DNA of 6,654 bases, taken from IMG/VR virus record IMGVR_UViG_2713896788_000026. One strand, 5' to 3'. Below the pieces are notes generated by a model, which searched no databases, was not told the origin of the DNA, and saw only the letters and a program-made list of their open reading frames with translations. Position 1 is the first letter of the stretch, and every line of letters begins with the position of its first letter. This document shows, in pieces, positions 1-1,975 of this stretch. The position numbers and the translations under genes were made by a program. The DNA comes from a virus. Lineage: Duplodnaviria; Heunggongvirae; Uroviricota; Caudoviricetes.

Positions 1-470
1 CGCCTCCTTCACCATCTGTTCAAGCATCGGACGCACATCATCCGGGGTGAGACTTTTACCGTCTGCCGGCTGCGGAATATTTGCGACCGCATCATTCACC
101 GCCTTCTGCAGTACTTCCGGATCATAGTCACGACCGTCGCGCGGAACAGGGATATGGCTTACCGCCTCCTTCACCATCTGTTCAAGCATCGGACGCACAT
201 CATCCGGGGTGAGANNNNNNNNNNNNNNNNNNNNNNNNNNNNNNNNNNNNNNNNNNNNNNNNNNNNNNNNNNNNNNNNNNNNNNNCCGGGGTGAGACTTT
301 TACCGTCCGCCGGCTGCGGAATATTTGCGACCGCATCATTCACCGCCTGCTGCAGTACATCCGGATCATAATCACGACCATCACGCGGTACCGGAATGGC
401 CCCCACAGCGTCATCCACCATCGCCTGCAGAACCGGACGCACCTCATCCACCGTCACATGCTTCTGTAAT
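1..470. repeat. Tandem direct repeat, 162-bp unit (54 codons), at least 3 copies, in frame within the portal gene
   Basis: Positions 1-52 are identical to 163-214; unit length 162. After the N run, 286 to about 450 is a third copy with many substitutions, especially in its distal part. On the minus strand the units encode near-identical 54-aa modules. Confidence 0.85.
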
Positions 471-1975
471 ACCGCCGACAGGGAAGTCAGTTTCTCTTCA
501 AACGCTTGTGCCTGCGAGGCCATCTTCCCCTCAAATGTGCGCTGTAAATCCGCCAGCACTGTGGAAAATTCTTCTCCCAGTGCACGAATAATGGACAGTT
601 CCCGTTCCGTCATTTTCTCAGTATCCCCCCTGAACATCGCTTTCACCGCATCATGCTCTGTTTCACTGATTGCCTTATTACCGTCAGATGCGCCGTCAGG
701 CAGCTGTGATGAAACTGTTTTCCCGGCAGACGCGAACGGATCCTCACGGGCATCACGACGGGACAGCGCCTCCAGACTGTAGTTCTGCTGCTGAAGATAC
801 AGTGCATCACCGCCGGCCAGGGGCGGCAGGTTCTCCCGTTTACGGGCCTCATTGGGCGTGAGAAGCGTATTTTTCACCGCATCCCCCAGCGTTTTCATGC
901 GCCGCTCACTGTCCATTCTCAGCAGCGTGGTGACATCAAATTCTGTACTCTCGTTTTCCCCCGTTTCCAGCGCCTCATCCAGTAACAGTTCAATGGACTC
1001 AATCAGCGTCTGCAGACACTGGGAATAATACTGCTGCTCCAGCGCCTCCACGTTGTCACTGGAAGGCGGGTGGCCAACGCCAATCTTGTAGGCCGGGACA
1101 CGGAACACCGAACAGACAATTTCAGCCGTCATTTTCAGTTGTTCCACCGTCTGCGCATCCACCGGTGAAAACGTCGTGGGGCTGTATTTTGCCCCGTTGC
1201 TCAGTATGGCCGTCTTCCCGGCATTTTCGCCCGTATATCCGCTGTCCCAGTTCCCCTTCAGTTTTTTCGCGTTTTCTTCCGTAATACTGCCGGGGACCTC
1301 AATCACGCCTGATGGTCGCCCGCCATTTCTGAAAAAATACGTCGAATTTGCCTGAATATGATGCCCCTGCATGGCGGCCAGTCCTGCGGCATACACCGGC
1401 GGCAGCCCCACAAGCGGATGAAAAAAACAGTTAAAACGGTCGTGGATCACCTCCCGGGCAGGCACCGTCACCGACTCTGTGATCCCACAGTTCCGGTCCG
1501 GCGTGATGCGGTAGAACACCTCGCCGTCATCCGCCACCAGAGGTTCAACCCGGTTCCAGTCCAGAATACGCAGTTCTTTGATCTGCCCCCGGGGGGTGCG
1601 GATTTTCAGCACCACCGTATTGCCGTGACGCAATTTGGAATTCAGCCACAGTTCAAAAAACTGGATGCGATTCTGCTGCGCATTAGGACGACGACAGAGA
1701 CGGGCAGTATCTCCCTGCCGCTTTTCCCGGCGTATTCCCTGTACATCAGTCTGCATCAGGCGAAGCCGCATTTTGGCAATATCCTGGGATATCAGCGAAA
1801 TGCATGAAAACACCGCGTGAAAGGACAAAACGGTTTCCGGATCGGCTTTCACCCCCTGCTGCCAGGCACCGGCAAAAGGCTCAGCCACCGCCTGAAACAG
1901 GGACCGCCAGCCCACTTCTCTTACGTCACGTCCTGATTTCTGGTTTTTTCGGGTTCGCCGCAAAAGGTTCCACAT
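1..1975 (-). CDS. Portal protein, HK97-family-like, with long repeat-containing C-terminal extension; 3' end not in window and interrupted by assembly gap
   Basis: ORF track 200..1975 (591 aa including 24 X). ATG at 1973-1975 (reverse complement) with GGAG about 8 nt upstream. Central region (FFRNGGRPSGVIEVPGS, AKKLKGNWDSGY, SPVDAQTVEQLKMTAEIVCSVFRVPAYKIG) matches the conserved core of HK97-type portals as I remember it. The stop at 200-202 is an artefact: the N run is 71 nt (not a multiple of 3); in the frame set by the repeat copies, 1-214 translates without stops, so the ORF stays open to the window edge. Confidence 0.85.
215..285. other. Assembly gap (run of 71 N) inside the tandem repeat
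   Basis: Literal N characters; flanked on both sides by copies of the same repeat unit, so the true length and copy number are unknown. Confidence 0.95.

Follow-up and report, generated by a model that had tools for sequence, protein, structure and literature searches.

In solved portal structures, the C-terminus of the portal protein faces the capsid interior. One long addition at this end is the mostly helical barrel of the P22 portal gp1, which belongs to the portal gene itself in P22 and closely related phages. Other phages encode a protein directly downstream of the portal gene, such as SPP1 gp7 and Mu gpF (MuF, PF04233), or carry fibrous structures such as T4 fibritin (Wac) and the lactococcal neck passage structures, the latter being decorated with carbohydrate-binding modules. 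Here we analyzed a stretch of DNA of 6,654 nucleotides (hereafter the window) from a virus of the class Caudoviricetes (IMG/VR record IMGVR_UViG_2713896788_000026), in which an HK97-type portal open reading frame (ORF) starts at position 1975 on the minus strand and runs on past the portal core into a long extension. We show that this extension is a second gene, denoted gene X, which is fused to the portal gene by one extra G, and that separate portal and X genes are the ancestral and general state.

Residues 1 to about 405 of the ORF are a standard member of the HK97 portal family. PF04860 matched residues 54-382 (positions 830-1816; E = 1.6e-79, 267.9 bits against a cut-off of 39.1) and TIGR01537 (portal_HK97) matched residues 45-388 (E = 2.4e-108, 362.3 bits against a cut-off of 112.05); judged by these curated cut-offs, the core is an HK97-family portal. 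The neighboring genes (terminase, S78 protease, HK97-fold capsid, and head-tail adaptors) also fit this family, but the portal gene follows a protease-capsid fusion gene here and not the terminase gene. The same order of protease-capsid fusion and portal was observed in the Pseudomonas phage PAJU2 and in metagenomic relatives. Positions 286-1975 of the window are 100% identical to the Sp9 prophage of Escherichia coli O157:H7 Sakai, with equally identical copies in EDL933 and numerous further closed genomes, and by sequence the window is an O157:H7 Sp9-type lambdoid prophage of E. coli.

Past the core, the portal frame continues into an acidic linker, a long predicted helix (residues 457-503, positions 467..607, minus strand; modeled with AlphaFold2 (AF2) at a predicted local distance difference test score (pLDDT) of 72-82 and seen in the homologue alignment), and direct repeats of 162 nt, or 54 aa. 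The repeats were found at positions 42-205 versus 286-449 (84% identical) and 1-52 versus 163-214 (100% identical), and each 54-aa unit contains two loops with a PxPxDG motif. Repeat unit 1 (residues 509-562, positions 290..451, minus strand) consists of a helix, a IPVPRDGRDYDP loop, a second helix, and a IPQPADGKSLTP loop, a layout based on the repeat search, the full-length protein, and the AF2 secondary structure. Unit 2 is interrupted by a run of 71 N (positions 215..285), both flanks of which read CCGGGGTGAGA. The end of unit 2 (214..208), the whole of unit 3 (207..46), and the start of unit 4 (45..1), all on the minus strand, match Sakai exactly (locus L001, 7842-8055). Since 71 is not a multiple of 3, the N run breaks the reading frame within the repeats, so that the end of the program-listed ORF at 200..1975 is artificial. 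Sakai has 151 nt where the window has the 71 N, and therefore neither the repeat number nor the reading frame of this assembly is reliable. Tandem Repeats Finder reported nothing on positions 1-1200 because the N run splits the repeat array.

The portal-X ORF leaves the window at position 1, and about 270 residues lie beyond it. In closed genomes the full protein has 859 aa (ECs_1795 in Sakai) and comprises the portal core, the linker, the helix, four 54-aa repeats (residues 509-724), and a 135-aa C-terminal beta domain, which lies wholly in the part absent from the window. A preliminary description of the window, made from its letters alone, had recognized much of this: the ORF is indeed continuous, the repeats with two PxPxDG motifs each are real, and the acidic, coiled-coil-like segment that it reported corresponds to the long predicted helix. 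Its landmark for the end of the core, QQQNYSLEAL, exists but lies at residues 395-404 rather than near residue 420, and the extension is longer than 170 residues, as it said, but the frame break in the N run and the 270 or so residues outside the window were missed. The extension matches no characterized portal, again as described; Pfam searches with the repeats alone returned chance-level matches only, and NCBIfam returned no match to the extension.

The nature of the extension became apparent from the Stx1a phage LC567823, in which the same region is annotated as two coding sequences. Aligning the two DNA sequences, we found a single indel at the junction, a run of five G (G5) in LC567823 and of six G (G6) in Sp9 and the window. 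The G6 run lies at positions 625..630 on the minus strand (C6 on the plus strand) and was read directly in the window, as was the run in the Sakai prophage Sp10. The portal gene proper, residues 1-450, is common to the two alleles (positions 626..1975, minus strand) and is 100% identical to ECs_1795. In the G5 allele, the portal has 454 aa and ends in ..AMFRGILRK*, and X is a separate ORF of 407 aa that starts with MTERELSII. The two genes overlap in the tetranucleotide ATGA (positions 610..613, minus strand), in which the ATG of X (613..611, Met455 of the fusion) is followed in another frame by the TGA that stops the portal in the G5 allele only (612..610). The X frame of the G5 allele contains a stop 11 codons upstream of this ATG. 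An extra G in the run, 12 nt upstream of the X ATG, shifts the portal frame into the X frame and appends 405 residues of X to the portal, giving the 859-aa chimera. The G5 run was also found in Sakai Sp10, in Stx1a and Stx2c phages, and in phage JLK-2012, and the split form is annotated as such in Sp10 (ECs_1974 and ECs_1975) and, on a diverged background, in JLK-2012. The fused ORF is an already-annotated, ordinary frameshift fusion, and the portal is of no novel type. With the ancestral arrangement, portal and X are made as separate proteins, probably with translational coupling at the ATGA.

We then looked for X in other phages. When the E. coli extension was used as the query, all matches were near-identical, partial 'portal' fragments from E. 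coli. Draft assemblies routinely break within the repeats, and this has left hundreds of 'partial portal protein' entries. A tblastn search with the C-terminal domain led to EBPR siphovirus 3. Its portal, recognized by PF04860, is gp4, and the ORF that follows, gp5 (613 aa), shows homology over the entire extension, including the N-terminal helix, many IPxPxDG/helix repeats, and the C-terminal domain. With gp5 as the query, 633 matches were obtained, and precomputed PF04860 annotation was present in 0 of the best 120 of these 633. We inspected eight contexts in which X is a separate gene. In seven of them (EBPR, a Variovorax paradoxus prophage, four metagenomic loci, and PAJU2, with gp06 as portal and gp07 as X), X directly follows a portal of 449-491 aa, in the order terL, protease/capsid, small ORF(s), portal, X, and head-tail connectors. 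In the eighth, X lies 1.8 kb downstream of the portal, directly upstream of a connector gene. The portal/X junctions varied, with overlaps of 38 nt (EBPR), 11 nt, and 1 nt and with intergenic gaps of 18 and 30 nt. When 1.84 billion cluster representatives were searched with a profile, the X family comprised 13,297 of them at E<=1e-3 and 3,002 at E<=1e-30. A BLAST search with two portal cores against all 223 retrieved X homologues from outside E. coli gave no match.

By these observations, the extension is not an intrinsic part of the portal: portal and X are split in Sp10, JLK-2012, 49 Stx phage records, and the distant relatives. The preliminary description had taken the extension for a domain of the portal itself, and had named a frameshift between core and extension, or homology of the extension to a separate downstream gene, as grounds for abandoning that idea. 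Both occur in relatives, the former as the G5 allele with its ATGA overlap and the latter in EBPR siphovirus 3, PAJU2, Variovorax, and metagenomic phages, and the extension is therefore a fusion of two genes and did not evolve within the portal. This also separates it from the P22 barrel, which it resembles as a long, mostly helical C-terminal addition with an expected location within the capsid; in relatives, X is a gene of its own, and its fusion to the portal hangs on one base.

A portal-X fusion is exceptional, being seen only in the G6 allele of E. coli and in the Moraxella phage Mcat9. In Mcat9 (locus L003, 3726-5165), a 479-aa portal is followed by a linker of about 30 aa and then by the last 50 or so residues of X, a CBM5/12-like module; the repeats and a separate X gene are absent. 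This form is an independent and apparently rare fusion or deletion derivative. A search for Mcat9-type fusions of portal and carbohydrate-binding module (CBM) found one related fragment in 5.8 billion proteins.

To determine how common the fusion allele is, we counted the G run in complete E. coli genomes using 40-mers in which the run is spanned by every 28-nt megablast seed. G6 was found at 1338 places in 752 genomes, G5 at 708 places in 367 genomes, G4 at 3 places in 3 genomes, and G7 at no place in any genome. Among phage records, 10 have G6 (including 2851 and YYZ-2008) and 49, all of them Stx phage records, have G5. Descent or recombination, rather than frequent slippage, accounts for the spread of G6, which is a stable allele. 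Frequent phase variation is rejected given the 3 places with G4 and none with G7. The high abundance of G6 indicates that the chimera is at least tolerated in prophages. The record of vB_EcoS_phi330 contains more frame breaks in X and was not used as evidence of viability.

To characterize X, we aligned its homologues and predicted structures. The consensus consists of an N-terminal helix (..APL..R..ALE..), repeats of the form V..AVAA.P.P.DGKSVT..DV.P, a beta-hairpin module, and a conserved end, DRGV..EG..Y..GD.VTWGGS.WIAQ.DT..KP.....WRLAVK.GRDGKD. The N-terminal helix of E. coli X aligns with the conserved helix of the stand-alone homologues. In the AF2 model of E. coli X, a 47-residue helix is followed by eight short helices with 12-residue loops between them; the packing of the short helices was of low confidence in this monomer prediction, and the C-terminal domain was modeled at a pLDDT of 88-97 in E. 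coli and above 90 in the homologue P0190. By these models, the C-terminal domain has the CBM5/12 (chitin-binding) fold. CBM_5_12 (PF02839) matched E. coli X with 23.7 bits (E = 4.9e-5), below its gathering cut-off of 26.2, and 25 of 102 homologues at E<=0.01, likewise sub-threshold (best E = 3.6e-5). The collagen triple-helix family PF01391 was found in 11 of the 102 homologues (best E = 1.8e-23) and is absent from the E. coli protein. Structural neighbors in BFVD were EBPR gp5, collagen-repeat phage proteins, phage proteins with ChiC_BD or CBM5/12 domains, and tail fibers. A sequence search of the PDB found no homologue, returning only designed helical-repeat proteins (compositional matches) and chitinase CBMs, and Foldseek found no full-length match in the PDB. 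The 223 homologues are acidic without exception, with pI values of 4.3-5.8; for the extension in E. coli, the net charge is -22 and the pI is 4.8, and its repeats alone have a net charge of -19. The role in DNA contact that had been suggested for the extension is disfavored by this acidity.

The length of X varies in steps of one repeat. In fused proteins, X has 351/353, 405/407, or 461 aa, corresponding to 3, 4, or 5 repeat units, and the spans of the X locus differ by 162 nt among complete phages and genomes. The 162-nt unit behaves like a variable number tandem repeat (VNTR; window 1-451 and L001 7525-8172). In the Lys8385Vzw record, the locus span is 486 nt shorter, possibly leaving a single unit.

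X shares features with several known systems. Like the genes of MuF proteins, it lies directly downstream of the portal gene, apart from the one case at a distance of 1.8 kb, and an association with the portal is plausible. However, PF04233 (Phage_Mu_F) had no match to the E. coli extension at E<=1 and was not among the families most matched in the 102 homologues, and X has acidic, fiber-like, collagen and CBM features instead of the MuF fold. Like T4 fibritin and the lactococcal neck passage structures, X is encoded among the head-tail joining genes and has a length-variable shaft of short helices and loops that is predicted to be trimeric; unlike them, it has a knob of the CBM5/12 fold and not a foldon, and no sequence homology to them was detected. 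Compared with the CBM5/12 domains of ChiC, ChiB, and EGZ, the X module scores below the Pfam threshold and would be carried by a phage fiber, not by a glycoside hydrolase. The collagen-repeat fibers of uncultured Caudovirales are structural neighbors of the C-terminal region of X, and collagen repeats occur in the 11 homologues mentioned above, whereas E. coli X has helix/PxPxDG repeats in place of Gly-X-Y.

We propose that X forms a parallel, homotrimeric, acidic fiber. It would begin with the conserved N-terminal helix, continue as a shaft of variable length, in which IPxPxDG loops connect short helices (3-5 units of 54 aa in E. coli, with collagen triple-helix segments in some relatives), and end in a distal knob of the CBM5/12 carbohydrate-binding fold. 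The collagen segments, the CBM fold, the fiber-like structural neighbors, the acidity, and the VNTR-like shaft point to a fiber; the trimeric state is suggested by the collagen segments of homologues, the models themselves being of monomers. The knob may bind sugars, and X is probably an accessory adhesin of the head or neck, most likely attached near the portal vertex. As the preliminary description had noted, anything fused to the portal C-terminus would face the inside of the capsid; the chimera would then trap X inside the capsid. This fits the published assessment of Sakai prophages, in which the portal was scored 'D' in Sp9 and '+' in Sp10 (Asadulghani et al. 2009, Table 1; PMC2669165); the supplements of that study give no reason that we could find for the 'defective' score of the Sp9 portal. 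In the same study, all morphogenesis genes of Sp10 were conserved and Sp10 was transferable to K-12, and the packaging of Sp9 was complemented by other prophages (PMC2669165). The chimera is most likely a tolerated or defective variant rather than a designed feature. We assign a probability of about 75% to this explanation as a whole, that is, a one-G fusion of portal and X, X as a trimeric accessory fiber, and a chimera that is tolerated or defective.

Several observations weigh against this explanation. G6 is commoner than G5 in complete E. coli genomes (1338 versus 708 places), it is present in the unrelated lineages O157:H7, O145:H28, and ST131 with G4 and G7 nearly absent, and the records of phages 2851 and YYZ-2008 have it; by its frequency and distribution, the chimera is at least tolerated and is spreading. 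In Mcat9, the X knob became joined to the C-terminus of a portal a second time, independently. The tight adjacency of X and portal would be compatible with an internal protein bound to the portal, and so would the strong conservation of the C-terminal module, which is unusual for a receptor-binding tip. The literature gave no experimental datum on the position of X in the virion, and nothing on X was found in the literature on portal extensions, neck or collagen fibers, PAJU2 virion proteins, or phage 2851.

Much of this would be expected under the main rival explanation, in which the chimera would be the functional form and X an internal head protein associated with the portal crown, lying above the portal whether fused or free, analogous to SPP1 gp7 or Mu gpF in gene position or to the P22 barrel in geometry. 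In that case, the fusion would serve as a 'Rosetta stone', pointing to a physical interaction of portal and X. X follows the portal directly in 7 of the 8 separate-gene contexts, often overlapping it; G6 is common, stable, and spread over E. coli lineages; the fused ORFs stay uninterrupted whether they have 3, 4, or 5 repeats and despite as many as 25 substitutions; and the conserved N- and C-terminal modules, with a variable region between them, are reminiscent of a tether that links two fixed partners, besides the second fusion in Mcat9. However, a portal core was present in 0 of 223 homologues from outside E. coli, in a family of about 3,000 strong representatives, and the Mcat9-type fusion recurred as a single related fragment in 5.8 billion proteins. 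The collagen repeats, the CBM5/12 knob, and the tail-fiber-like neighbors are features of external fibers, a uniformly acidic protein would be unfavorable beside packed DNA, there is no MuF signal, and X lies 1.8 kb from the portal gene in one relative. Moreover, it is the fused Sp9 portal that was scored defective, and the split Sp10 that is intact for morphogenesis genes and transferable to K-12 (PMC2669165). We therefore regard a portal-crown protein as unlikely, and the narrower claim that the chimera is functional with X normally at the inner face of the portal as slightly less likely still. If it were true, X would define a new class of internal head protein in HK97-like siphophages, acidic, variable in repeat length, and tipped with a CBM, and the length of the G run (G5 or G6) would determine whether X is made free or is linked covalently to each of the twelve portal subunits.

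The G run could also be a regulatory device. It could switch heritably between G5 and G6, or ribosomes could shift by +1 at UUC-AGG-GGG of the G5 allele, which would then deliberately make free portal together with a minority of portal-X chimeras. Both alleles are abundant, the G6 junction is found on two or more sequence backgrounds (DTEKM and DTAKM), and the portal tail of the G5 allele contains AGG, AUA, and AGA codons, which are rare in E. coli and can promote +1 shifts. A run of 5-6 G is short for phase variation, though, and the 3 places with G4 and none with G7 argue that slippage is not frequent. A conserved overlap with a slippery site was not found across relatives, the distant ones having gaps or other overlaps. 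We consider such a device improbable. That the continuous ORF is a sequencing or assembly artifact of the window is more improbable still: homopolymers are error-prone and there is an N run in the repeats, but the G6 junction and the whole stretch of 1690 nt recur with 100% identity in 20 or more closed genomes, Sakai and EDL933 among them, and G6 is found at 1338 places in 752 complete genomes. An artifact was rejected for the junction, and only the repeat number of this assembly remains uncertain.

The one-base fusion has consequences for annotation. What looks like a 'giant portal' in O157-type lambdoid prophages is an allele in which one base has fused two genes, and this bears on which Stx-related prophages are judged to be morphogenetically intact. 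Stand-alone X homologues lacking a portal domain are labeled portal protein, for example P0234 (Variovorax), P0128 (Sphingomonas), and phrog_1289. Apparently, the name 'portal protein' given to the fused E. coli ORF passed to stand-alone homologues in NCBI records and PHROGs, and our results correct this spread error. The remaining interest lies in X itself, a widely mis-annotated and uncharacterized family of about 3,000 strong representatives with no consistent match in the Pfam copy searched and no solved structure, which holds a fixed position beside the portal gene and may be a widespread accessory fiber.

In several phages from outside E. coli, X is followed within the head-tail module by glycosyltransferase, sialyltransferase-like, methyltransferase, and acetyltransferase genes. 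These sugar-modifying clusters were located in PAJU2 (L014, 6727-8670) and in three further loci (L009, 9970-15166; L016, 8349-11863; L017, 6763-9664), and no such cluster follows X in the E. coli prophages. Their gene content suggests glycosylation of a virion protein, possibly X. O157 Sakai releases particles with an elongated head of 44 x 95 nm and a flexible tail of 147 nm, which the authors ascribed to lambdoid prophages other than Sp5, naming Sp10 and Sp6 without pinpointing the origin; neck or head fibers are not described in the text on these particles (PMC2669165).

All genes of the window from the terminase to the portal ORF are on the minus strand. The terminase small subunit (5846..6409; Pfam Terminase_2) and large subunit (4188..5849; Pfam TerL_ATPase/TerL_nuclease), both in agreement with the Sakai annotation, are followed by the prohead protease-major capsid protein fusion gene of 645 aa (2187..4124; Pfam Peptidase_S78 and Phage_capsid). 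Positions 1976-6654 are less than 100% identical to Sakai Sp9, and the window therefore comes from another strain or prophage copy. Between the capsid and portal genes lies a small conserved ORF of 73 aa (1921..2142), which corresponds to ECs_1794, had no match in a Pfam scan, and overlaps the portal start by 55 nt; its position is filled by small ORFs of 46-129 aa in relatives.

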